DNA from: Planctomycetota bacterium
Lineage (GTDB): Bacteria; Planctomycetota; Planctomycetia; Pirellulales; UBA1268
DNA: 64,000 nt
Direction of reading: 5' to 3'
Assembly: GCA_016872555.1 (NCBI GenBank)
Contig: VGZO01000008.1
Coordinates: 25,323-89,322, forward strand
Both the position numbers and the translations under genes were made by a program. Below the pieces are notes generated by a model. It ran no database searches and was not told the DNA's origin. It saw only the letters and a program-made list of their open reading frames with translations. Of this stretch, positions 8,185-63,449 are shown piece after piece. How positions within the stretch are numbered: the stretch's first letter is position 1; each line of letters begins with the position of its first letter.

Positions 8185-9303
8185 TCACTCGTTGGCGGTG
8201 TTCTCGGCGCCGGCCTTCGAGCCCAGCGCCCCCCACACGCCGAACGGGCTGGGCGTCTTGTCTTTGTAGGCGACGACCGTCCCGGTGTTGCCGGTGTCGA
8301 TGTTGTCGGCGATGAATCGCACCGAGGCGTCGCAGAACGCCACGCTCACACCACCCGGATGGTAGCTCGACGGCGGCTGGACTGCGTGGTCGTCGTCGGC
8401 ATTATTGATCGGCGCACCGCCCGTGCCCTGACCGGCACCGCACGACGGGGAGTTGGGCGGCAGGACGGTGTTGAAGCCGACCCGGCCGACCTGGCCGTCG
8501 GTCCACTTGTCGCCCCAGTACTGCTTGATGTTGGTACCGGCCACATAGAACTGACCGGCCGCGAGCGTGAGGCAGGCGTTGGGGGTCAAACGGACGGATC
8601 CCAGATGCGCGACGCCGACCCGGATCGGCACGGTGTCCGTCGTGCGGAAGCTGGTGCCGTTTCCACGGATCCGCTCGCTCATCAGGATCGTCTTGCTCGT
8701 GCCATCGACGATATCGGCGATCGTCGTTCCACGCGGCGTGATCGGCGTCGTCCCGCGGTACGCCGTCCGGGTAAACGCTCCGCGGCCGAAGTTGTCTTGC
8801 GTGCGAAGGTTGCTGACCTGATCACCCACGGAAAGCGCGTACGAGTTGGAGGAGATCCGCGAGTCGTTCTCGGTGTCGACCGGGCAGCTCAGGGCCCGCG
8901 GAGCGGTGTTCCACACCGACCAACTGATCCACGCGTACGGTCCACCGGCGGCGATTCCGCCGCCGCCGGCCTGGATCTGGTTGTACATGTTGACTTCCTC
9001 GATGAACGGCAGCAGCTCGACGAATGCACTTCGCCGCGCCGCGTTGTTCGCCGACGAGGGGCCGCCATTCGCCCAGCAACAGGTGCCGCCGGCCGACGCC
9101 GGCAGCGACTTGTTGGTGTTCTCGTAATTCAGGCTGGCCAACGCCAGTTGCTTGATCTTGTTGGTGCAGGCGCTGCGCTGCGCGGCGGCACGCGCGGCTT
9201 GGACCGCGGGCAAGAGCAGGCCGACGAGCGTACCGATGATCGCGATCACGACCAGCAGCTCGACGAGCGTGAAGCCACGCCGGCTGGGATGGGGCTTGTT
9301 CAT
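8185..9303 (-). CDS. DUF1559 / H-X9-DG domain protein with prepilin-type N-terminal methylation motif
   Basis: Start at ATG 9303. N-terminus is [32 protein letters not shown]-terminal signature [26 protein letters not shown] is present. Confidence 0.85.
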
Positions 9304-9427
9304 GGCAACGGGTCCTCGGAAGGAAGTCACGGACGAATGGGACGGATGGATGAAGGGACCGAAACAAACATCTCGAGTGGAAACCGGCAGGCGGGCACCG
9401 AACACGGAATGAACCAATTCAATCGAC

Positions 9428-9919
9428 TCATTTCGCAAGCTCGAAATCGAACGTCGTCGAGCCACCCCCGACGGTCGCCCGAAGTCCCGACTCGCGCGGA
9501 TTGTTGAAACGGGGGGGAATCAGGCTCTTGGCAGGCGGCGGCTCCTTGAGACCTTCCGGGGGAACGTAGTCATCGGAGTTCGCGTTCGCGGATGAACCAG
9601 TCGCCGCTGCCGTTTCATTCTTGACGATCGCGACGCCGTAGTCTCCTGCCACCGCGCCGTCTCCCGCCTCGAACGAAGTCAGGACGTATTTCCCGGCGTC
9701 ATCGGTGATACCGACAGCGGCTCGCCCCCCGGCAGCCACGGGCTGGAAGCTGACGGTTGCGCCGGGCACGGGGGTTCCGTTCATCGTCACCTTCCCCGAC
9801 ACCTTGATGGTAGACGGACGCTTGGGGCCCGACGAGCAGGCCGGGACTGCGACGAGCAGGGCGAGGGCCCCGCCAACGGCCAGAAAACGCGACGCAGTGC
9901 TGCCGGCGAACGAAAGCAT
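9428..9919 (-). CDS. small lipoprotein with carboxypeptidase-regulatory-like beta domain
   Basis: Start at ATG 9919. Lipobox is LLVAVPAC. The segments [19 protein letters not shown]...[11 protein letters not shown] are present. It is a paralog of the 10033..10569 product. Confidence 0.7.
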
Positions 9920-10032
9920 CGAGCGGGGTGCCCTGTGGATGAGTGGACGAAGAACAGGTGGACAGAAGAGGTACGAAACAAACCCAGGCATGCCAGACAA
10001 GCGAAACGAACGAAGAGTCAGCCGACAGAGCG

Positions 10033-10569
10033 TCAATTCTTCAGGTCGAAGACCGCGGGGGCGTTCTCGCCATCCTTGACCTCGACGGTGAGGCCGGACG
10101 TCTTGGCTGCCTTGTACTTGGCCGGGAGCAACTCCTTGGCACCCTTCACGACAGCAGTCACCGCCGTCGAGGGATCATAGGAAGGATCGTCGGCGGTGAG
10201 GGCCCGTCCATCGGGAAACGCCGTCTTGGCGACGGTCACCAGATACTTGCCCGGCACCGCCCCGTCGCGCGATTCGAACGTGGTGAAATTCACCACGCCC
10301 TCGGCGTTGGTCATCCCCGAAGCGGCGTTCCCGGAGCCCCCCTCGGGGGCGAGCACGACCGTCGCCCCTTCGACGGGCGCTCCGTCGAGCGTCACCTTCC
10401 CCGAAAACGGCACCCGCTTGGGGCGCGTATCGACCGGCTTGGCGCAGCCCGCCGTCGCCACCAGCGCGACGACCGCGAGCACGCAAACAAGTGAGCCGAC
10501 ACGTGACGATCCGAGCCCGTCGACCGTTTCCCGTCGCCGACGAATTCCCGAAAGCATGGAGCGGCTCAT
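10033..10569 (-). CDS. small lipoprotein with carboxypeptidase-regulatory-like beta domain
   Basis: ATG 10569 overlaps the upstream stop (ATGA coupling). Lipobox is LVATAGC. The segments [19 protein letters not shown]...[11 protein letters not shown] are present. Confidence 0.7.
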
Positions 10570-11729
10570 TCGTTGCTCACCACTTCGCCACCCGCCTTGG
10601 TGCCCATCGCCCCCCACACGCCGTAGGCGCTCGGGCCCTGGGCGATGTTGGGAAGTGCCAGGTTTCCGGTGTCGATGTTGTCGCTGATGAACCGCACCGA
10701 CGCGTCGGCCATCACGGCGTTGACACCGCCCGGATGGTAGCTCGTCGGCGGGATGAGCTGGTGGGGAAAGTCGTGCGTAGTGCCGCTGTTGCACCCCGGG
10801 CCATTCGGCGGGCTGATCGTGTTGAATCCGTTGAACGCCGGGCGGGCAAACATCCAGTCGCGGCCGGCACGGGGCACGACGACGGCCGATGTGTATGACT
10901 GACCGGAGACCTGGGCCGAACAGACGATCGGGCTGGTCTCGAACCCGGCGACGTTGCCAGCCTGCGTCTCGCGGACCAGGAAGCTGTTGTCACGGCCGCG
11001 GATCCGCTCCGACATCAGGAGCGTCTTGCTCGTGCCGTCGGTGATGTCTTTCATCGCCGTGAAGTTGGGCTCGGTCGGGGCGCCGGGATTGACGCCACCG
11101 ATCAGGCCGCGGCCGAAGATGCCGCGGGTGATCGTCGTCTCGGAGACGTTTTGGCAGACGTCGCCCATCGAGAACACGTAATTGGTCGTGCCACGGTTGC
11201 CGTCCCCGTGGAACGCCGTCGTCCGTCCGTCAGACGGGCAGCGGAGCGTGGGCACCTGGGCCATCATGATGTTGGAGAATGCTCCAGCAGGCCCAGGCAC
11301 ACTTGCAGAGCCTCGCCACGGCTGAAAATTGTCAGGTGGATTCCCTGCCGCTGGGAATGACAAAACCCCCGTGCTCGTCAGCCAGTTGACGATCGTGTCG
11401 TAGTAGGTGCCCTGCTCGTAGAACGGCAGCAGCGGGAGATTCCCGCTCCACCATTCGAGGATGTAGACGTACTGCGGGGCGATCCGCGGGCTGGTGATCT
11501 TCATGTCCTGCCCGCGGAGGGCGACGAAGTGCTTCCGCGAATCATGGTAGGTCTGGTTGGCCAGGCCGAGTTGCTTGAGGTTGTTGGTGCAACGCGAGCG
11601 GTTGGCCGCCTCACGGGCAGCCTGCACGGCGGGCAGCAGCAGCCCGACGAGCGTCCCGATGATGGCGATGACGACGAGCAACTCGACGAGCGTGAAGCCG
11701 CTCGGACCGCGGCGGTGAGCATGTGGCAT
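10566..11729 (-). CDS. DUF1559 / H-X9-DG domain protein with prepilin-type N-terminal methylation motif
   Basis: ATG at 11729. N-terminus is [30 protein letters not shown]-terminal signature [26 protein letters not shown] is present. Confidence 0.85.
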
Positions 11730-32169: not shown

Positions 32170-32994
32170 ATGGTGAGTGCCGCCGACTTCGCCTGCATCC
32201 GTGAGTTCCTCCGCCGGCGCAGTGGCGTGGTCCTCGATCCGTCGAAGGGCTATCTCGTCGAGGCCCGGCTGCTTCCGGTGGTGAAGCGCCACGGGTGCGG
32301 CGGCCTCGACGCCCTGGTCGGGCGGCTGCGGCAGGGGGGCGACACGGCCCTCGAGCGCGACATCCTCAACGCGATGATGACCCACGAGACGTCGTTCTTC
32401 CGCGACCGCGCGCCGTTCGAGACGGTGCGGAAGATCCTCCCCGACCTGCTCGCGCGCCGCGCCGTGTCGCGGCACCTGACGATCTGGTCGGCCGCCGCCT
32501 CGACGGGGCAGGAGGCGTACAGCCTGGCGATGCTCCTCGAGGAGCACTTCCGCCCGCTGCTCGCCGGGTGGCGCGTGCGGATCCTCGCCACCGACATCTC
32601 CGACGTCGTCCTCGAACAGGCGCGGACGGGGAGCTACGGCACGCTCGAGATGGCGCGCGGCCTGCCCGATGACTACCGGCAGAAATACTTCGTGCCGCTG
32701 CTGGGGCGGTGGAGCATCGCGCAGGACTGCCGCAAGCTGGTCGAGTTCCGCCAGTTCAACCTCGCCGCGCCATGGCAGGGGATCCCGGCCTGCGACATCG
32801 TCTTCCTCCGCAACGTCCTCATCTACTTCGACATCCCGACGCGCGTGCGGATCCTCGACCAGATGCGCTCCGTCGTCCGCCCCGACGGCAGCCTGTTCAT
32901 CGGCGGCGCCGAGACGCTGCTCGGGGTGTGCGACACCTTCGAGCGCCTCCAGGGGGCCGGCTGCGGCTATTACCGCCCGAAGCCGGCGCGGTAG
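32170..32994 (+). CDS. cheR: chemotaxis protein methyltransferase CheR
   Basis: Motifs HETSFFRD, IWSAAASTGQEAYSLAM, DISDVVLEQAR and IVFLRNVLIYFD are present. Confidence 0.9.
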   Translation: MVSAADFACIREFLRRRSGVVLDPSKGYLVEARLLPVVKRHGCGGLDALVGRLRQGGDTALERDILNAMMTHETSFFRDRAPFETVRKILPDLLARRAVSRHLTIWSAAASTGQEAYSLAMLLEEHFRPLLAGWRVRILATDISDVVLEQARTGSYGTLEMARGLPDDYRQKYFVPLLGRWSIAQDCRKLVEFRQFNLAAPWQGIPACDIVFLRNVLIYFDIPTRVRILDQMRSVVRPDGSLFIGGAETLLGVCDTFERLQGAGCGYYRPKPAR

Positions 32995-33380
32995 CCGAGC
33001 CCGGCGACTTTTGGGCCAGCGCCCCCAGTATCGGATGCTGCCTGGAATGGTCGTGGACGACCCTCGCCATCCATTGGATCGAGCCCGCGAGGGTAACCGA
33101 GTCGGGAGACAACATCGACGACCCCACGGCTGCCGAGATCGAGGAAGTCGGGCGGCCCGAAGACGCACTCCTTGCTCTGGCGGGGGGGCAGGAAAACCAT
33201 CGAATTGACTGAATCAGGGGCCTTCGGACGGCGGGCTGCGTTTAGGAACAGCGGCACTTTGTTGCCGAATCAACGTGCCCTTCTATGAAAAGCGCAAGTT
33301 AGCAGCGGCGTGATCGAAGGGAAGAGTTGCGGCGATATGACGATGAACGCTGGGTGGGCCTCGATTTGGGTGTTCCCGGC

Positions 33381-33421
33381 CGGAGCGGCGGCAGGCCCCC
33401 AAGCAGCCTGCCGCCGCTCCG
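33381..33421 (-). terminator. perfect 16-bp stem hairpin 22 bp downstream of the DndB-like gene (candidate terminator, no U-tract)
   Basis: CGGAGCGGCGGCAGGC (33381-33396), a 9-nt loop, then GCCTGCCGCCGCTCCG (33406-33421). Confidence 0.45.
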
Positions 33422-33442
33422 TGACCGCGGGCAAGGGCGCCC

Positions 33443-34600
33443 TCAAGCGGTCACGAGAGCGCCGGCCCGGATCCGCTGATAGTTGGGCTGAGTGGGATCA
33501 GTAAGGGCCCGGTAAACGGCATACGCCGTCTCCTTGGAGCCTCCGATCGACAGCTTGCCGCTCGGGCTCAGCTTGCCGGCGATGCCGTTCCAGTGCTCGC
33601 CCTTATCCCAATCGACCGACTTCAGCTCGTCGATCAGTCGCTTCATCTCCTGCTGCCGGTTCGGAAGGTTGACGAGGGAATGCCCCATCGCCCCGATGGC
33701 CGCCAGCACCGCCGGCGCGGAGGCCACCGACTGATCCCTCAACTCCATGGCTGGCCTGATCGCCTCGGCCACGGCTCCGAACCACTCCTTCGCAACCTCG
33801 GTGAGGTGCTTCAGATCTCCCGCCACGGCGACCGGCTTGGCCCCGTGCTTCACGCCGCCAATGCCCTCGGCAAGCGTGACGCAGGCACCGCGGAGCGCCG
33901 TAATCGTGACGACATGCCTATCCGACCTCCGCAGTTGCCGCCGCACGGTGTTGACCCTGTCCTTGAAGAACGGGACCTCCTGCTCGAGAGTCCTGGCAAT
34001 GCCCGTTGCCGGATCCCGGGCGTCCATCGAGATACCCACGGCGGCGTTCGGCCGAACGCCGCACATGTTCAGGTCATGAAAGACCTGACGAGCCCAGGTC
34101 AGGTCGAGCCCGTGACAGATCATCACCGGGACTGACGCGGCCTGCGTGGACGGATCCATGCTCGCCGCCTCAAACCGGGCGGCCAACTGCGTCTCGCCAT
34201 CGATGGCGATGAGCATGGTTCCGTACGGGATCTGGATCTGGCCCCCGGCGTCTGGAGAGTTGGTCCACTTCAACTTCTCCTTGGTGAACAGGATGATCGG
34301 CGGCGCCATCCCGTTCTGACCGTTGTGGACGGCGACGAGGTAGTCGGCGTAGGGCCCGACGTTCCGCTCCTTCGCCCCCTCAAACAACCGCTGCACCATC
34401 TCGCGGATCTTGCGGGTCTCACTGAGCGAGGCGTCCGCCGCGACCTGCTTCTCGTCCTCGGTCCGCCGAGGATCCTGCGCCACCTGCATCAACTGGGCGG
34501 CCTTCATCCGGCCCAGAAACCGGTGGGTGTCGAGGGAGACTCCCGCGACGATGTGCCCCTCGGTGGTATTCAGTCGATCGATCGATTCAGAAGATTCCAT
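33443..34600 (-). CDS. DndB / DGQHR-domain-like protein (ParB/Srx-fold), divergent motif DGETQ, orphan
   Basis: ATG 34600 is preceded by GAGGG 8 nt upstream; the ORF-track start at 34666 is a TTG. FLGRMKAAQLMQV, VQRLF..AKERNVGPYADYL....APPIILF and LIAIDGETQLAARFEA parallel remembered DndB segments (..LRGRM.., IQR..., FAIDGQHRLAA). Confidence 0.6.
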   Translation of the reverse strand: MESSESIDRLNTTEGHIVAGVSLDTHRFLGRMKAAQLMQVAQDPRRTEDEKQVAADASLSETRKIREMVQRLFEGAKERNVGPYADYLVAVHNGQNGMAPPIILFTKEKLKWTNSPDAGGQIQIPYGTMLIAIDGETQLAARFEAASMDPSTQAASVPVMICHGLDLTWARQVFHDLNMCGVRPNAAVGISMDARDPATGIARTLEQEVPFFKDRVNTVRRQLRRSDRHVVTITALRGACVTLAEGIGGVKHGAKPVAVAGDLKHLTEVAKEWFGAVAEAIRPAMELRDQSVASAPAVLAAIGAMGHSLVNLPNRQQEMKRLIDELKSVDWDKGEHWNGIAGKLSPSGKLSIGGSKETAYAVYRALTDPTQPNYQRIRAGALVTA

Positions 34601-34672
34601 TTGAACAACCCTCAGTTGTGACTGCGCCCCCTCGCCAAAGCGGCTCGGGCGTCGCTTCGAGTTCAAAATATC

Positions 34673-34755
34673 GACCCGAGTCGATCCGTCAACAACTCGA
34701 GTTGCAGCTGTGAAAACTCGGGTCTTTTTTCAGGCTGTTTCTCATGACCCGAGCT
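34673..34755. promoter_or_regulatory. phased array of four palindromic ACYCGRGY cores upstream of the DndB-like gene
   Basis: GACCCGAGTC (34673-34682), the perfect 12-bp palindrome CAACTCGAGTTG (34693-34704), AACTCGGGTC (34715-34724) and GACCCGAGCT (34746-34755). Centre-to-centre spacing is 21, 21 and 31 bp. Confidence 0.35.
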
Positions 34756-34992
34756 CGCAATTCTGATCTAGACACTTGGTGTCTGCGAATTTCCTGGGGT
34801 CCTCCGAAGGGCTCAATAACTGCTAAAGCCCTTGATGACGGAGGTTTATGATTTTTTTAGCATGGCTGCAGGCGCGTTCAGAGCATCCCTTGTGCCGCAG
34901 CACCGCCGTGCACCAGGCCTGCCCGAAGCCCGCATCCTGATTGGATTGGGCCCGGGGGAAGGGGCCCAGAAACTTTGGGCAGCAGAATCCGC

Positions 34993-35883
34993 TCACGAGG
35001 CTGCGGCGTCCTCGATCCCGTCGAGCAGCGTGGGGATCTTGTTCGCCCGGATCGTGGCTATGACCGCCGACGAGGATTTCCAGGGCTCTCCCGGCATGCG
35101 GGTGATGAGTTGCCGCCACACTCGACCAAACGCCGCGATCGCCGTCTCCTCGTCAAAAATCACCCCTGCTGGCAGCAGCGGAGCAACGTCTTCCGTCAGG
35201 CTCCGGTTGAGCTTCTGCAGCATCCGCTCCTCGCTGATGGCCCGGGTGATTGGATGTCCTTCCAGTTCCAGGTAGTGCCGAAAACAGTCGATCAACCGGT
35301 CGTGGTCGAGCCCTGGCAGCAGCAGCGCCTCGTTGAGGTCGAACAAATCGCGATTCTTGTTCCGCTGCAGGAGGGCCCGCAGTTTTGTGGCGAGCAATTC
35401 CTCCCGGTCGTACGACATGATCTCGACCCGCCCGCGGTGCCAGTCGCTTTCGACTGCGTAAGGATAGGCGAGAAGCCCATGCCGGCTCTGGTGTTCCCGG
35501 GTGTTGATCTCGATCTTGAGCTTGAGCGGCTGGTCGCTGGTCTCCTCGGGAGTGAATCTGAAGATGAGCGCGGTCGAGCGCTGGCCTTGAATCCGCTTTC
35601 CTCGCCCAAGCCACGAGAGTGCATCTTGAACTCCGTCGATCACCGGCCCGATCGCCTCCGCTCGAGTCTGCACGAGGTCGATATCCTCGGAATAACGCAG
35701 CGGCTTCGCGAACAGGAGTTTGTGAAGCGCAGTTCCGCCGCGAAATGCGATCCGATCGCGGATTGCTCTGCTGGCGAAGAGATCGCACAGGGCGCGGGAA
35801 ATGACCAGATCCTGTTCGACCTGTCGGAGATCGGGCCACGGCGCGGCAGCGGTCCAGTGTTGGATGTACGCCCGTGGGATCAT
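34993..35883 (-). CDS. abiEii: AbiEii/AbiGii-family nucleotidyltransferase toxin (type IV TA / abortive infection)
   Basis: MIPRAYIQHWTAAAPW..., FRGGTALHKL and RYSEDIDL (NTase motif) are present. The length of about 296 aa is typical. ATGA overlap with abiEi. Confidence 0.8.
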   Translation of the reverse strand: MIPRAYIQHWTAAAPWPDLRQVEQDLVISRALCDLFASRAIRDRIAFRGGTALHKLLFAKPLRYSEDIDLVQTRAEAIGPVIDGVQDALSWLGRGKRIQGQRSTALIFRFTPEETSDQPLKLKIEINTREHQSRHGLLAYPYAVESDWHRGRVEIMSYDREELLATKLRALLQRNKNRDLFDLNEALLLPGLDHDRLIDCFRHYLELEGHPITRAISEERMLQKLNRSLTEDVAPLLPAGVIFDEETAIAAFGRVWRQLITRMPGEPWKSSSAVIATIRANKIPTLLDGIEDAAAS

Positions 35884-36698
35884 GCGTCGATCTCGACGTC
35901 ACTATTGATCGTGAGTTTCCAGGGCTTGTTCCGCTCTTCGCAAGCGGCCAACGGTCGTGCTGCCGGCTTGAGCGACGGGTCGAGCAGCGTGAATGACTTC
36001 GCCTGCTCGGCATACTGCGCGAGAGATCGAGATTGACGGGTGTACCCGAAATGCTCGAGAAGGTATCCGAGCCTGCGCACCGCCGTGTTGTCGTAGGCCT
36101 TGGCTGCGGCGGCGAGAACGCTGCCGCGGGCCTTGTCTCCAAGATCGTGCACGGCCTGGGCCGCGGCATTGAGCCCTCCCGCGCGGTGGAAATAGCCGCA
36201 CATGTCGAGCAGCGTCAGTTCGAGGCCGGCGACCTTGGCAAACCCCGCGTCGGTCTTGAGGCGATCGAGCCACGCGGGCTGGTTCGTTCGCGCGAAGGCC
36301 TCGGCCGTCTGGTAGAGGAACTCGATCCGATGCCGGCCGATCACGATGAGCGGAAGCTGCCGCGGCGAAATCACCTGAAAGACCATGGCGGCTTGGTGGG
36401 CGGCGCCATGGAAGGCTGCGGCCCTCAGCAGCGACACCCGATAGTCGAGCCCAAGATGCGCCATCAGCGGGTCGATCCAACGGGCTGGATCGGGGGCGCC
36501 GAGGAGGCGATCCTCGGGCCGTAGAATCAAATAAAAGCCTCGGCGGGGGGACACGAGGCGGCCCTTTTTGGCCAGCCGTGAAGCCGCCGCCTGCAAGGCC
36601 TTGGGTGATTGCCGAAGTGCCGCCAGTGCCGCGGGCTTCGTGAAGAAAGCCCGGCCGTTCAGACGCTGCTGATCGATGAAATCTTCCAGTTCACCCAT
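35880..36698 (-). CDS. abiEi: AbiEi-family antitoxin/transcriptional regulator (type IV TA)
   Basis: Positioned immediately upstream of abiEii and overlapping it. The N-terminal wHTH-like segment is FFTKPAALAALRQSPKALQAAASRLAKKGRLVSPRRGFYLI. The C-terminal segment is AFHGAAHQ. Confidence 0.75.
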   Translation of the reverse strand: MGELEDFIDQQRLNGRAFFTKPAALAALRQSPKALQAAASRLAKKGRLVSPRRGFYLILRPEDRLLGAPDPARWIDPLMAHLGLDYRVSLLRAAAFHGAAHQAAMVFQVISPRQLPLIVIGRHRIEFLYQTAEAFARTNQPAWLDRLKTDAGFAKVAGLELTLLDMCGYFHRAGGLNAAAQAVHDLGDKARGSVLAAAAKAYDNTAVRRLGYLLEHFGYTRQSRSLAQYAEQAKSFTLLDPSLKPAARPLAACEERNKPWKLTINSDVEIDA

Positions 36699-36755
36699 GC
36701 CCCGATCATATGAGAAAAACGACGTGCGGCGAGTGTTTTCTCATATGATCGGGGC
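36699..36755 (-). promoter_or_regulatory. perfect 20-bp inverted repeat abutting the abiEi start codon (candidate AbiEi operator)
   Basis: GCCCCGATCATATGAGAAAA (36699-36718) and its exact reverse complement (36736-36755) are separated by 17 nt. The proximal arm ends at the base before ATG 36698. Confidence 0.45.
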
Positions 36756-36792
36756 GTGAGCCGGTCTGCTTGTGTTGGGGCCTTGGTTCCCA

Positions 36793-38226
36793 TCACCCCG
36801 CCGCCGGGCCCGCCCACTCCAGGCACAGGATCGAGACGTCGTCGAGCGGCCCCTTCGGCTGGCACCAGGCCTGCACGCTCTCGAGCAGGCGCACGACGTT
36901 AACGTCGACCGAGTCGCCGCGGAGCGACTCGACCAGCGCCGTCATCCGCTCGTTGCCCATCTGCTCGAGCTTCTCGTCCATCGCCTCCGGCACGCCGTCG
37001 GAGTAGAGGATCACGCGGTCGCCCGGGGCGAGCTGGAGCGTCTCCTCGGCGAACTCGACGTCGGGCACGAACCCGACGGGGAAGCTCTCCACCTCGAACA
37101 GCTTGAGCGCCCCGGTCTTCGGGACGTGGAGCAGGGGCGGGTGGCCCCCCGACACGAAGCGCAGCTTGCCGCTGGGCACGTGGAGGATGCCGTACACGAT
37201 CGTGAAGTACAGCCCGGCCTGGTTGTCGGCCTGGAACAGGTTGTTGAGCTGGGTCACCACCTCGGCCGGGGCCGCCACCAGCGGCTTGCCGCCGTCGGGC
37301 GACGGACGCAGGAGGAGCGACGTGTCGGAGACGCGCGGCGTGAGGAACGCCCCGACGGTCACCGCCAGCAGCGAGCTGGGCACACCGTGGCCGCTGACGT
37401 CGACGACGAACATCCCGACGTGCTCGTCGTCGAGCGCGAAGATGTTGAGGAAGTCGCCGGCCAGCTCGTTGCACGGCACGTAGCGCCAGGCCGACGCGGT
37501 CGCCGGCATGTCGAGCGCGGCCTGGGGGAGGAGCGACTGCTGGACCTTGGCGGCGGCGTGCAGGTCGCGCGTCATCCGTCGGTTGCTGCGCTCGATCTGC
37601 TCGTTGACGGCGACCAGCTCGGTGTTGGCTTTCTGGAGCTGGTCGCGTGCCACCGACAGCGACTGGTTGGTCGAGATCAGCTCCTTGTTCTTGGTGACGG
37701 CGTTCTCGAACACCGACACCAGCAGGTTGAGGACCTGCTGCCTCCCGGCGTTGACCTTGAAGGTCTGGCCGGCGACGGTGACCTCCATCTCGTTGCCGGC
37801 CGTCGCATCGGCGGCCGCCAGCGGGGAGGCGAGCAGCGAGTCCATCCGGCCGAGGAGGTACTCCGGCTCGTAGGGCTTGGTGACGTAGTTGTCGGCCCCG
37901 GCGTCGAGCCCGCGGATGATGTCGACCGGGTCGCCGAGCGACGACAGGAGGATCAGCGGGATCGTGCGCAGATCGGGATCGGTCTTGACGATCTTGCAGA
38001 GCTCGTAGCCCGTCATCTCCGGCATCTCGATGTCGGAGATGATGATGTCGGGCCGCCGCTCGCGGACCAGCGCCAGGGCCTTGCCGCCATCGGCCCCCCA
38101 GCGCACGGCATGGCCGGCCTCGGTGAGCCGGCGCTCGAGGAGCTTGGCCTGGATCTTGCTGTCCTCGGCAATCACCACGTCGACCGGCCGATGGGCGCGG
38201 GGAGGGCTGGAGTCGGCGGAGGCCAT
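36793..38226 (-). CDS. response regulator receiver + PP2C/SpoIIE-type serine phosphatase (RsbU-like)
   Basis: Start at ATG 38226. The REC domain has VVIAEDS, IIISDIEMPEMTG, LILLSS and YVTKP. The PP2C domain has GDFLNIF, FVVDVSGHGVPSS, GGHPP and LYSDGV. Confidence 0.88.
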   Translation of the reverse strand: MASADSSPPRAHRPVDVVIAEDSKIQAKLLERRLTEAGHAVRWGADGGKALALVRERRPDIIISDIEMPEMTGYELCKIVKTDPDLRTIPLILLSSLGDPVDIIRGLDAGADNYVTKPYEPEYLLGRMDSLLASPLAAADATAGNEMEVTVAGQTFKVNAGRQQVLNLLVSVFENAVTKNKELISTNQSLSVARDQLQKANTELVAVNEQIERSNRRMTRDLHAAAKVQQSLLPQAALDMPATASAWRYVPCNELAGDFLNIFALDDEHVGMFVVDVSGHGVPSSLLAVTVGAFLTPRVSDTSLLLRPSPDGGKPLVAAPAEVVTQLNNLFQADNQAGLYFTIVYGILHVPSGKLRFVSGGHPPLLHVPKTGALKLFEVESFPVGFVPDVEFAEETLQLAPGDRVILYSDGVPEAMDEKLEQMGNERMTALVESLRGDSVDVNVVRLLESVQAWCQPKGPLDDVSILCLEWAGPAAG

Positions 38227-61078: not shown

Positions 61079-61708
61079 TCAGTCGAGCGACAGGAGCGAC
61101 GACCTCACCTCGCGGAGCCGCGCCAGCGTGGGCGCGTCGCGCAGGTGCGGATACTCCTCCAGCAGGGCGACGACATCGGCGATGTCGTGCTGCCGCTTGC
61201 TCGGCCGTCGCTGCGGCTCGGCCGCTGCCGCGAGTTTGAGCACGATCATGTCGATCGGTGTCGCCACACGGATCACCAGTCCGTCGGCAAGATGCGTCGG
61301 TTCGGCGCGACTGACGGCATCGGCGATCCCCACATCGTCGGCCGAAAACCGCACCGTCGTTCGCAGGCTGCCGGAACCACCTGCCGGAGCCTGCCAGGTG
61401 TCGCTGTGAGCATGCCGGCCCCTATGCTCGAATCCGGCGGCGACAAGCGCGGCACGCGGAATATCGTCGAATCGCGGGACGGCGATGTCGATGCCGAGCG
61501 TCGTCCGTGGCTCGCCCGTGCGGATCTGCATGGCCACGCCACCGATCAGCGCATAGGCCACCCGTTCGCGGTTGAGGAGGGTCGCCACCAGCCGAAGCGG
61601 CCCCTCCTTCGTGTCGCTCGGATCGATGCCCATCGTCTCGGTCCAGAGGTGATCGAGCGCCAACCCGATCAGGAGCCGCTCGCGGGCAGCCTCGGCAGAA
61701 GAGGTCAT
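61079..61708 (-). CDS. minimal nucleotidyltransferase-fold protein (MNT/AbiEii-like), no adjacent partner
   Basis: Start at ATG 61708. The NTase-like motif is ALIGGVAMQIRTGEPRTTLGIDIAV. ...KRQHDIADVVALL is also present. Confidence 0.55.
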   Translation of the reverse strand: MTSSAEAARERLLIGLALDHLWTETMGIDPSDTKEGPLRLVATLLNRERVAYALIGGVAMQIRTGEPRTTLGIDIAVPRFDDIPRAALVAAGFEHRGRHAHSDTWQAPAGGSGSLRTTVRFSADDVGIADAVSRAEPTHLADGLVIRVATPIDMIVLKLAAAAEPQRRPSKRQHDIADVVALLEEYPHLRDAPTLARLREVRSSLLSLD

Positions 61709-61976
61709 GGCACGCTCTCGGGATCGGGTCGCCGACCGCACTCTCCGCGGTCGCTGATCGAATGAGTCCGGCCGTGCCGCGCCGGTCGTCATCGTCACGG
61801 GCGTCGGGGACGGGAGTGGGCCATCGCCCCGACTCCAGCCACCATTGTAATCGGCAGCGATACCGCGATCGGCGCCCCGAGGCCGCCCAGCGGCCACCGA
61901 GGGCTCGCCGTCACCCCGTTTGATCGGGCGCCCCCGGTATGCTCGAGCAGGACCGATGACCTCCGGAGGGGTGGCG

Positions 61977-62546
61977 ATGCACGAGATGCTGTCGGTAACG
62001 CTGACGTTGTTTGCCGGGGTTCTCGCGGGCGACGGCGCCCTGCTTCCGCTTCTCGACTTTGCCGCTCCCGACGCCGGGCAGGTGTGGCAGGCGGTGAACG
62101 ACGGCGTGATGGGTGGGCGTTCGCAGGGGCGCTTCAGGATCACCGAGACCAAATCGCTCGAGTTTTCGGGAAACCTGTCGCTCGAGAACAACGGCGGCTT
62201 CGCGTCGGTGCGCACCAAGCCGATGGCGCTGGGGATCGCGGCGGGCGACACGCTCGTCATGCGCCTCAAGGGAGACGGCCGCGAATACATGGTCAATATC
62301 TACACCACGGCCCGGCGCATGGCGTTTTCCTACCGGGCCGTCGTGGCGACGGAGAAAGACCGGTGGCAGGAGATCCACGTGCCGCTTGACCGGTTCGAGC
62401 CGACCTCGTTCGGCCGGATCGTGCCCGGCATGGGCCCTGTCGCCCCCGACCAGATCAACGGCTTCGGCTTCATGCTCGGCGACAAGAAGCCGGGCGCGTT
62501 CCGTCTGGAAGTCGAGTGGGTCAAGGTGCTCCGCGGCAGCGAGTGA
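61977..62546 (+). CDS. CIA30 (complex I intermediate-associated protein 30)-like family protein
   Basis: ATG 61977 is preceded by GGAGGG. WQAVNDGVMGGRSQGRF, NNGGFASVR and FMLGDKKPGAFRLEVEWVKV are present. Confidence 0.75.
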   Translation: MHEMLSVTLTLFAGVLAGDGALLPLLDFAAPDAGQVWQAVNDGVMGGRSQGRFRITETKSLEFSGNLSLENNGGFASVRTKPMALGIAAGDTLVMRLKGDGREYMVNIYTTARRMAFSYRAVVATEKDRWQEIHVPLDRFEPTSFGRIVPGMGPVAPDQINGFGFMLGDKKPGAFRLEVEWVKVLRGSE

Positions 62547-62612
62547 GCCGGGGCCATCGGCCGCGCGCGGGCCTCGTGGTGCAGCGCCGCAAAACAGGTA
62601 CAACAAGGCCGC

Positions 62613-62685
<73 letters not shown>

Positions 62686-62796
62686 GTTGGTTTCGCCGGT
62701 CCGCGAGGTTGTCGAGCGACGTGCTGCCGAATCGCCGATTGAACAGGCGGCAGCGTGGTTTTGAGGCAGAGGATTGACCGGCGGAGGAGCACGACC

Positions 62797-63105
62797 ATGG
62801 CGACCGTTTCCTACCCGCACATCGCACTGAGCGCGGACGGTGTGCCCTATCTCGAAGGCACGCGCACCAAAGTCGTCGAGATTGCCCTCGACAGCCTCGC
62901 CCATCATTGGGATGCCGACGACATCCAGCGACAGCATCCGCACCTGACGATGGGGCAAATTCATACCGCCCTGGCGTATTACCACGATCATCGTGAGGCC
63001 CTTGACGCCGTGATCGCCCAGCAACTGGCGGACGTCGATCGAATCGCCGGCGCACAGCAACCCTCCGTGCTGCGCGAGAGACTGAAGCACGTGGGGCGGC
63101 AGTGA
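62797..63105 (+). CDS. DUF433 domain protein (putative antitoxin)
   Basis: ATG 62797 is preceded by GGAGGA. LSADGVPYLEGTRTKVVEIALDSLAHHWDADDIQRQHPHLTMGQIHTALAYY is typical of DUF433. Confidence 0.7.
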   Translation: MATVSYPHIALSADGVPYLEGTRTKVVEIALDSLAHHWDADDIQRQHPHLTMGQIHTALAYYHDHREALDAVIAQQLADVDRIAGAQQPSVLRERLKHVGRQ

Positions 63106-63449
63106 GCCTCCGGCTGTATTTCGACCACCATGTGCCACGGGCGATCGCTGTCGGCGTGCGGCAGCAGGGCATCGACGTACTGACCACGGACACGGACGGC
63201 ATGGCCGACCGTGACGACGAACTTCTTCTGCAACGTGCGACCGACCTCGACCGCGTCATATTCACGCAGGACAGGGATTTCTTGGCGCTGGCGGCGGCAT
63301 GGCAGCAGACCCGTCGAGAGTTCACCGGTATGGTGTACGCTCATCAGTTGCGGATCACCATCGGCGCGGCGATCCGGGACCTCGTCGTGATCGCTTCGTT
63401 GATGCATCCCGACGAGATGCGAAATCGTGTCGAATTCCTGCCGCTCTGA
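63102..63449 (+). CDS. DUF5615 (PIN-like/Mut7-C-like) protein (putative toxin)
   Basis: GTG 63102 overlaps the upstream stop (GTGA). RLYFDHHVPRAIAVGVRQQGIDVLT...IFTQDRDF is present. Confidence 0.65.
   Translation: MSLRLYFDHHVPRAIAVGVRQQGIDVLTTDTDGMADRDDELLLQRATDLDRVIFTQDRDFLALAAAWQQTRREFTGMVYAHQLRITIGAAIRDLVVIASLMHPDEMRNRVEFLPL

Follow-up and report, generated by a model that had tools for sequence, protein, structure and literature searches.

The 64,000-nt stretch of Planctomycetota DNA analysed here (contig VGZO01000008.1 of assembly GCA_016872555.1; hereafter the window, whose own numbering is used throughout) raises a question near its middle. Three genes of defence or toxin-antitoxin (TA) type, the pair abiEi and abiEii and a solo gene resembling dndB, stand together on the minus strand between cheR and a gene for a response-regulator-PP2C protein (REC-PP2C). 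Where did they come from, and do they act together? An earlier note, made from the sequence alone, had left two readings side by side: independent neighbours in a mini defence island, or a functional trio. Our answer is that the islet is a horizontally acquired TA/defence block which arrived in one piece and holds two independent, self-regulated units, the AbiE module and the DndB-like cassette; we put the probability of this reading at roughly 0.8.

First of all, the islet is an insertion. Metagenome contigs were scanned with CheR, which yielded 80 relatives. In about 55 of these, cheR and the orthologous REC-PP2C gene are adjacent and directly convergent, with a stop-to-stop gap of 0–130 nt and CheR identities of 54–84%, and AbiEi, AbiEii and the DndB-like protein are all absent from these empty-site contigs. 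In the closest relative (L096; CheR 84%, PP2C 90% identical), DNA homology to the window ends sharply at 32997 and restarts at 36807, so that the lineage-specific insertion spans 32998–36806. According to family scans, its flanks are CheR on one side (stop at 32994) and, on the other side, the convergent response-regulator-PP2C (SpoIIE) protein (stop at 36793–36795) followed by a STAS protein. The GC content of the island, 0.629, is the minimum among all 3.8-kb windows of the 64 kb (mean 0.712, standard deviation 0.025), and the GC content at third codon positions (GC3) is 0.76 for abiEi, 0.76 for abiEii and 0.84 for the dndB-like gene, versus 0.94–0.96 for the flanking genes. Because of the empty sites, the sharp homology breaks and the GC3 contrast, we regard 32998–36806 as confirmed to be a horizontally acquired accessory insertion. 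The earlier note had proposed just such a low-GC insertion of 3.8 kb, and its hand count of 28 G+C in the 60 nt at 34681–34740 is exact.

The insertion also left a mark on its neighbour. The REC-PP2C proteins of the relatives end in EW[KHQ]G, whereas the protein in the window ends in EWAGPAAG; the altered 3' end (36793–36807, minus strand) consists of four extra codons (PAAG) and a new stop derived from junction DNA. We therefore conclude that the native stop was displaced by the insertion, a displacement particular to the window among the relatives compared. No integrase, transposase or recombinase was found among the open reading frames (ORFs) of the island or by family scans, a repeat search revealed no flanking direct repeats or target duplication at its edges, and no tRNA gene is adjacent (the sole tRNA gene of the 64 kb, at 62613, is 26 kb away), in agreement with what had been noted before. 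Exact-sequence look-ups found the arrangement unchanged wherever the uncultured population of the window recurs, in several metagenomes.

Different and unrelated DNA occupies the same cheR/PP2C junction in other relatives: 470 nt in L096, about 2 kb in L104 and L108, about 1.2 kb in L145 and about 0.5 kb in L119 and L120. The junction thus tolerates insertions, or is a recurrent insertion spot. The 470-nt spacer of L096 (10823–11298) includes a unit of about 180 nt that occurs twice (GCTCGGGG(A/G)CGGCAAAAGTCTCCTCGCTGAGGCCGGGGCGGCCTCACGCTCGTCGAGCG...), and the PP2C gene of the same contig has three additional C-terminal residues. The insertion in L104/L108 (approximately 10817–12876 in L108) encodes a large multi-pass membrane protein.

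Where the inserted DNA was assembled can be read from a contig of another sample, L189. Window positions 36758 to 33013 (minus strand) align with L189 212–3956 end to end, in a single blastn high-scoring segment pair of 3763 nt at 87.6% identity that spans both modules, the spacer between them and a gene stub beyond, and the upstream flank of L189 is unrelated to PP2C. The gene order in L189 is abiEi-abiEii, the dndB-like gene, a DUF6088 gene and the start of a further DUF1814-like toxin gene; its AbiEii is 92% and its DndB-like protein 94.6% identical to that of the window at the amino acid level. As this colinear block lies in a different flank context, its assembly must have preceded its arrival at the cheR/PP2C site. 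In the approximately 0.4 kb that separates the DndB-like gene from cheR lies a dead 5' stub (33013–33239, minus strand) of a DUF6088 antitoxin gene with an AbiEi_4-type winged helix-turn-helix (wHTH); this gene is cut off where the block meets cheR, 19 nt from the stop codon of the latter. Positions 33230 to 33081 align with residues 4–58 of the L189 DUF6088 protein (49% amino acid identity, E 1e-10), which itself matches PF19570 at 1e-44 and has an AbiEi_4-type wHTH. The earlier count of three genes in the insertion thus stands for intact genes, and the stub beside cheR had been missed. Nucleotide identity to L189 is 70% for the stub, a neutral rate, versus 89–92% for the intact genes, and pN/pS between window and L189 is 0.15 for abiEi, 0.18 for abiEii and 0.10 for the dndB-like gene; by these sequence ratios, all three intact genes are under purifying selection. 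On this alignment, the island is a truncated copy of an islet with the order [abiEi-abiEii][dndB-like][DUF6088-toxin].

The first unit of the block is the AbiE module. The abiEi gene (35880–36698, minus strand; 272 residues; PF09407 at 8e-20, PADLOC AbiEi at 2e-85) would encode the antitoxin and autorepressor, a role taken from its family, and abiEii (34993–35883, minus strand; 296 residues; PF08843 at 6e-29, PADLOC AbiEii at 2e-94) a toxin of the DUF1814 nucleotidyltransferase family. The antitoxin gene comes first, and the two overlap by 4 nt (ATGA on the minus strand). The PADLOC AbiEi model covers residues 3–271, the full length of the protein; its N-terminal match to the AbiEi_4 wHTH is weak (17.5 bits, under the cutoff of 25). 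AbiEii retains motifs I–IV intact, with FRGGT-x16-DID at residue 47 (I and II), KLRALLQR at 167 (III) and RDLFD at 178 (IV). The published defining features of AbiE are a bicistronic arrangement with the antitoxin first, a 4-nt overlap, and the toxin motifs hG[GS], DhD, KLxAaxxR and +DxxD (PMC3985639). The module in the window is canonical in that, as far as can be read from its sequence, it has every feature of the published AbiE type IV TA or abortive-infection system.

The AbiE control region (36696–36758, minus strand) consists of two 23-nt inverted repeats, 36696–36718 and 36736–36758, with 17 nt between them. The arms are 96% complementary, and the proximal one abuts or overlaps the abiEi ATG. 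The repeats are kept upstream of the two closest independent AbiE relatives (83% and 77% identical) and in L189, and homology to all three begins there. A TATGAT hexamer lies 6 nt (CGGGGC) 5' of the abiEi ATG, within the proximal operator arm (36699–36725, minus strand). The positions of arm and hexamer suggest an abiE transcript that is leaderless or nearly so; the abiE leader of S. agalactiae has 26 nt (PMC3985639). By analogy with characterised systems, AbiEi would bind the paired repeats over the promoter and start codon, thereby repressing the operon, and would also neutralise AbiEii. The latter, a member of the MenT/DUF1814 family, would be a GTP-binding nucleotidyltransferase and would arrest growth (tRNA and translation are targeted in its characterised relatives), being set free when a phage infects or the module is lost.

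The second unit is a self-contained cassette at 33374–34790 (minus strand) with a 5' edge motif, operator-like boxes, promoter, leader, coding sequence and 3' hairpin. Its limits follow from the extent of homology to independent relatives and from a four-way alignment. The DNA shared with L001 (protein 92% identical) extends only from 34704 to 33377, and that shared with L190 (also 92%) only from 34789 to 33374; the four-way alignment shows TCGCARAYACCAAGTGTC as the shared 5' edge and a shared 3' edge just beyond the hairpin, with the leader conserved as well. The gene itself (33443–34600, minus strand) encodes 385 residues. Its ATG at 34600 is preferred over a TTG at 34666 because the latter lies inside the -10 box and because homologues begin at or after the former. 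The promoter is sigma-70-like (34665–34692, minus strand: TTGACG, 16 nt, TATTTT); it is the sole promoter-like site in 32800–37000 and is conserved in L001, L189 and L190.

Around this promoter lie five self-complementary CYCGRG boxes (34644–34753, minus strand: 34753–34748, 34722–34717, 34701–34696, 34680–34675 and 34649–34644). The middle three are spaced at exactly 21 bp, one of them just 5' of the -35 hexamer and one within the promoter spacer, and all five are kept in the four closest cassettes. We quantified the boxes in the upstream 220 nt of 42 family loci from several phyla, with shuffled sequences and 2000 trials as the null. The CYCGRG density upstream was 2.19 per 220 nt, compared with 0.39 in the remainder of these loci and 0.28 after shuffling (shuffle maximum 0.57). 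Among 75 consecutive box spacings, 31 were exactly 21 nt, and most of the rest were 31–32, 42 or 52–53 nt, that is, whole helical turns. A 21-nt box pair occurred in 25 of the 42 loci (null mean 0.85, null maximum 5), and TTGA followed a box by 1–4 nt in 18 of them. A regulon search for a phased CYCGRG pair elsewhere in the 64-kb window returned none. Salmonella DndB footprints on palindromes of its own promoter and represses it (PMC4507180). Based on the enrichment and phasing of the boxes, their overlap with the promoter, their uniqueness in the window and the Salmonella precedent, we suggest that the DndB-like protein binds its own phased boxes and autorepresses.

At the 3' side, a perfect 16-bp GC-rich hairpin with a 9-nt loop (33381–33421, minus strand; arms 33381–33396 and 33406–33421) begins 21 nt after the DndB-like stop, which agrees with the hairpin noted before. 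In the four closest cassettes the stem is kept while the linker between stop and stem varies, and in L190 pairing is preserved through a G.U pair. Across the family, stems of 9 bp or more occur no further than 110 nt from the stop in 24 of 41 loci; they have unrelated sequences and no T tract. The hairpin is likely, judging from this conservation of structure, to be a terminator or a 3' stabiliser. The 100% identity of the stem between the window and L001 had prompted us to consider an attC-like recombination site, which was ruled out because structure and not sequence is conserved across the family and the G.U pair is kept.

Between the two units lies spacer DNA at 34791–34992 (minus strand). 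Its homology is confined to L189, where it is 78% identical, near the neutral rate. Its fold has a z-score of -2.6 relative to shuffles, with no U-tract terminator, and an Rfam scan of 32800–37000 returned nothing credible. Around 34800–34843 (minus strand), after an A-rich run, it contains a two-part imperfect hairpin (CCTCCG..AAGGGCT-loop-AGCCCTT-CGGAGG), which is partly conserved in L189 and could be a weak abiE terminator.

Given these two units, do the AbiE pair and the DndB-like gene nevertheless form one system? In such a three-component system, the ParB-fold protein would, for example, sense or recruit foreign DNA and trigger or modulate AbiEii. The earlier note had raised a functional trio of this kind and a possible enrichment of the DndB-like family beside AbiE. 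To its credit, order and orientation are the same in the window and in L189, all three genes are under purifying selection, and Makarova et al. (2013) noted links of Dnd components to Abi and TA systems. We searched 82 other DndB-like loci, up to 10 kb on each side, by tblastn with the AbiEi and AbiEii of the window, and found a relative of either in 0 of 82. No family of flanking ORFs was common to more than 5 of 42 close loci. We also collected the two nearest genes on each side, chosen by a GC3-based gene picker, and assigned the 148 resulting proteins with Pfam and PADLOC. They fell into 134 Pfam families, at most 1 of the 148 was possibly AbiE, and AbiE was not among the families seen at least twice; the neighbours are housekeeping genes plus occasional transposases, methylases, AbiU, SoFic and PDC-S48. 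The association between the DndB-like family and AbiE was thus not borne out.

The closest relatives of each unit agree with this picture. The nearest DndB-like relatives (88–92% identical; L001, L190 and the P0004 contig) are without AbiE and adjoin UvrD/PD-(D/E)XK genes, RNase T/PIF1 genes, or DNA that is rich in insertion sequences and TA genes or of other kinds. The closest AbiE relatives (83% and 77%) are plain two-gene modules without a DndB-like gene, one amid housekeeping genes and the other in a resolvase/primase element, and the AbiE pair of the window shares DNA with them only over approximately 36758–35008. The homology of each module to its independent relatives therefore stops at its own control region, and in whatever context it occurs, the DndB-like gene has a promoter and operator of its own. 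The one other trio, in L189, is the same contiguous block of DNA; its arrangement therefore goes back to common descent and does not count as an independent co-occurrence. We thus favour independent, self-regulated neighbours over a three-gene system, as one of the two earlier alternatives had it, and consider the latter unlikely.

Several points weigh against our reading. The trio is adjacent, co-oriented and selectively kept in two contexts through approximately 25% synonymous divergence, which is also expected of a functional unit. The 392 nt between abiEii and the DndB-like ATG, a spacing given correctly before, contain no convincing terminator, so read-through transcription is possible. 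The co-occurrence test covered one AbiE subfamily (by tblastn) and the two nearest genes per side (by profile search), and distant or remote AbiE could escape it. Operator binding is read from sequence statistics only, and the factor that binds the boxes could be one of the host. Finally, the site has neither a recombinase nor repeats that would explain how the block integrated.

The mobile element that houses the 77% AbiE relative (L181–L186) encodes a pair of resolvases, a DUF3987/Toprim primase, an HTH_17 excisionase-like protein and a DUF2201 protein; on the P0004 contig, the 88% DndB-like relative likewise has a DUF2201 gene at its side. Elements of the resolvase/primase type may be vehicles that shuffle AbiE and DndB-like cassettes.

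A further question is whether the DndB-like protein is a genuine DndB, which would regulate in trans a dndCDE phosphorothioation cluster elsewhere in the genome. Its family membership, as well as the coordinates and identities of all three genes and the ATGA overlap, held up against the ORFs and the Pfam, PADLOC and TIGR models. The Pfam and PADLOC DndB models both match it (PF14072 at 2e-28), its homologues are often annotated as DndB, and it retains a second motif, QxFxDLN...VRP...D.RD, in common with Salmonella DndB. The score for TIGR03187, the DGQHR domain, is 63.9 bits, above the cutoff of 58.85. By contrast, TIGR03233, the equivalog model of true DndB, gives 85.5 bits, far below its cutoff of 328. 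Identity to operon-type DndB proteins is 22–27%, and to the operon-encoded Salmonella DndB, which directly precedes dndCDE, about 23%. No dndC, dndD or dndE was found in the island, the 42 close loci show no dnd gene as a conserved neighbour, and within the 64 kb the probable target boxes occur only at the gene's own promoter. The sub-cutoff TIGR03233 score, the low identity and the lack of dndCDE linkage lead us to conclude that the protein is not a true DndB and is instead a member of a solo clade, here called DGETQ, within the DGQHR/ParB-DUF262 superfamily; a regulator of a distant dnd cluster is quite improbable.

The name of the clade derives from its central motif. All 32 aligned clade members have the same AIDGETQLAAR, which aligns with NDGQHRRKA of Salmonella DndB, so the DGQHR equivalent reads G135-E-T-Q138, with an invariant arginine, R142, four residues on. 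The AlphaFold2 model of the protein has a pLDDT of 86.5. Foldseek against viral structures returned GmrSD-N/DUF262, DndB-like, AIPR and ParB-like matches with E down to 6e-9, the best in that library being GmrSD N-terminal domains. Foldseek against the PDB returned nothing significant, with ParB-N and DndI as weak top matches, and a sequence-profile search of the PDB gave no match. A family search retrieved several hundred proteins of about 380–390 residues, many of them labelled "DNA sulfur modification protein DndB", and an identity of 55–65% is kept across members from Acidobacteriota, Alphaproteobacteria, Planctomycetota, Massilia, Pseudomonas and Chloroflexota. Among 1.84 billion representatives, the clade comprises 186 clusters (50% identity, E <= 1e-30), with full-length proteins of about 370–430 residues and a single architecture. 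No close clade member was found in plasmid and phage collections, where the best match was 30% identical.

Distant DGETQ-type relatives in Streptomyces and kin (L041–L052 and L055–L083; 30–38% identity) fall into two groups whose gene order is conserved. The first has its DGETQ-type gene between hisF and trpE, with a gene for an NYN-domain RNase coming after it. In the other, a Ser/Thr kinase and a 725-residue N6-DNA methylase are encoded on one side, and a 634-residue protein and an Hsp70-NYN fusion on the other; this second group is perhaps a conflict system not yet described. These neighbours hint at nucleic-acid conflict for the wider DGETQ-type group and are not evidence for the clade represented in the window.

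Even with two separable units, the islet could have been built in place by two separate insertions at a permissive hotspot, AbiE first and the DndB-like cassette later. Against independent relatives, the homology boundaries are indeed module-specific, the two units differ in GC3 (0.76 versus 0.84), and other lineages carry unrelated DNA at the cheR/PP2C junction (L096, L104/L108, L145). But L189 has all of it, spacer and DUF6088 region included, in colinear order within other flanks, and no variant with a single module at this junction was found among contigs with identical CheR or AbiEii, so we hold successive insertions to be very improbable. A version in which the two cassettes had inserted independently with anonymous filler, suggested by the same module-specific limits, was ruled out by the colinear 3.76-kb block and the DUF6088 stub. 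The weakest alternative, an ancestral region deleted in relatives, draws on the lack of any mobility gene or target duplication to mark an insertion and is scarcely credible, given that all of the approximately 55 relatives (CheR 54–84%) are without the region, that its GC3 is 0.1–0.2 below the flanks, and that the block recurs in an unrelated context, ends in a truncated gene and coincides with a PP2C stop displaced only in the window.

Our reading of a single acquired block with two units would then run as follows. A 3.75-kb block would have dropped into the convergent cheR/REC-PP2C junction in one event; a cut inside the DUF6088 gene would have left the dead stub beside cheR, and the other end would have displaced the PP2C stop. 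From the position of the boxes and by analogy with DndB, the DndB-like protein would bind the CYCGRG palindromes that lie, in helical phase, on both sides of the -35 hexamer and in the promoter spacer, and so repress itself. Our best guess for its effector role is a DNA-directed activity in conflict with mobile elements that would be independent of the canonical NTP-binding arginine. More tentatively, and with more doubt than confidence, the DGETQ clade could be a minimal mobile unit: a partnerless 1.4-kb cassette of promoter, gene and hairpin, free of mobility genes, spread between phyla and tightly autorepressed through palindromic boxes on a single face of the helix. Its protein would work alone, either as a DNA-directed agent against plasmids or phages or as a selfish factor, again without the canonical arginine.

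Elsewhere in the window, a second small TA islet with low GC (0.65) occupies 61082–63446 around a tRNA-Met gene (62613–62685). It encodes a 405-residue protein with a divergent C-terminal AbiEii domain (61082–62296, minus strand; PF08843 at 2e-7) and an overlapping pair of DUF433 (62755–63102) and DUF5615/PIN_10 (63102–63446) genes. In another patch with a GC of 0.65, at 8188–11729, lie two genes for DUF1559 proteins (8188–9465 and 10569–11729, minus strand) that have prepilin N-methylation motifs. A BBP7 gene is present on the source contig and, taken with the DUF1559 genes, suggests that the host is a planctomycete.

The island itself is ordinary, and the cassette, a variant within a known superfamily, is of modest novelty. 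What is new here is the single-block origin, the DUF6088 stub, the displaced PP2C stop and the solo DGETQ cassette with its apparent autoregulation. With its exact boundaries, displaced stop and truncated cargo gene, the island is a clean case of a small TA/defence block in a permissive convergent junction. The label "DNA sulfur modification protein DndB" in metagenome-assembled genomes extends to a compact solo clade unconnected with dnd operons, which calls for caution in inferring phosphorothioation from it. In addition, window positions 34640–34760 and the 385-residue protein provide a defined DNA target and a defined protein as a testable lead.

How does the islet compare with known systems? 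A classical integrase-mediated genomic island has an integrase, an att site or tRNA gene and direct repeats, all of which are lacking here. Defence/TA islets at permissive junctions are closer: they likewise show foreign composition, stacked TA or defence genes and junction contents that vary among relatives. Compared with these, the present islet is very small, one of its ends is cut within a gene, and it has no integrase, tRNA or repeat boundary. Its AbiE module resembles S. agalactiae AbiEi-AbiEii and M. tuberculosis Rv2827c-Rv2826c in its bicistronic structure, the 4-nt overlap, the AbiEi_1 C-terminal domain, the DUF1814 toxin with motifs I–IV and the paired 23-nt inverted repeats at the promoter. 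In the AbiEi operators described so far in the literature consulted, two inverted repeats of 23 bp are separated by 3 bp in S. agalactiae and 13 bp in Rv2827c (PMC7319586); the corresponding spacer in the window is 17 nt, and the proximal arm abuts the ATG.

The DndB-like protein finds its likenesses in several ParB-related families. In proteins of the ParB-CTPase fold that act as NTP switches, the arginine of the P-motif GxxR is needed for NTP binding (bioRxiv 10.1101/2025.10.10.680097, PMC11662687), and in the DndI motif D83GQQR87, R87 is required for ATPase activity and defence (PMC11662687). In our alignment, Gln138 takes the place of this arginine, including R87 of DndI. With the DUF262/GmrS-type ParB-fold NTPase domains of GmrSD, SspE and DndI, the protein has the fold and the second motif in common, and it differs from them in having no fused HNH/DUF1524 nuclease. 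From DndB of dndBCDE systems, for example that of Salmonella enterica, it is set apart by an identity of about 23%, a TIGR03233 score under the cutoff, the change from DGQHR to DGETQ with loss of the arginine, a monocistronic solo arrangement unlinked to dndCDE, and an operator of CYCGRG boxes with 21-bp phasing in place of TACG-N10-CGTA. What it shares with DndB is an N-terminal fold of the ParB/DUF262 type with a helical C-terminal half, the motif QxFxDLN...VRP...D.RD, and palindromic repeats at its promoter.

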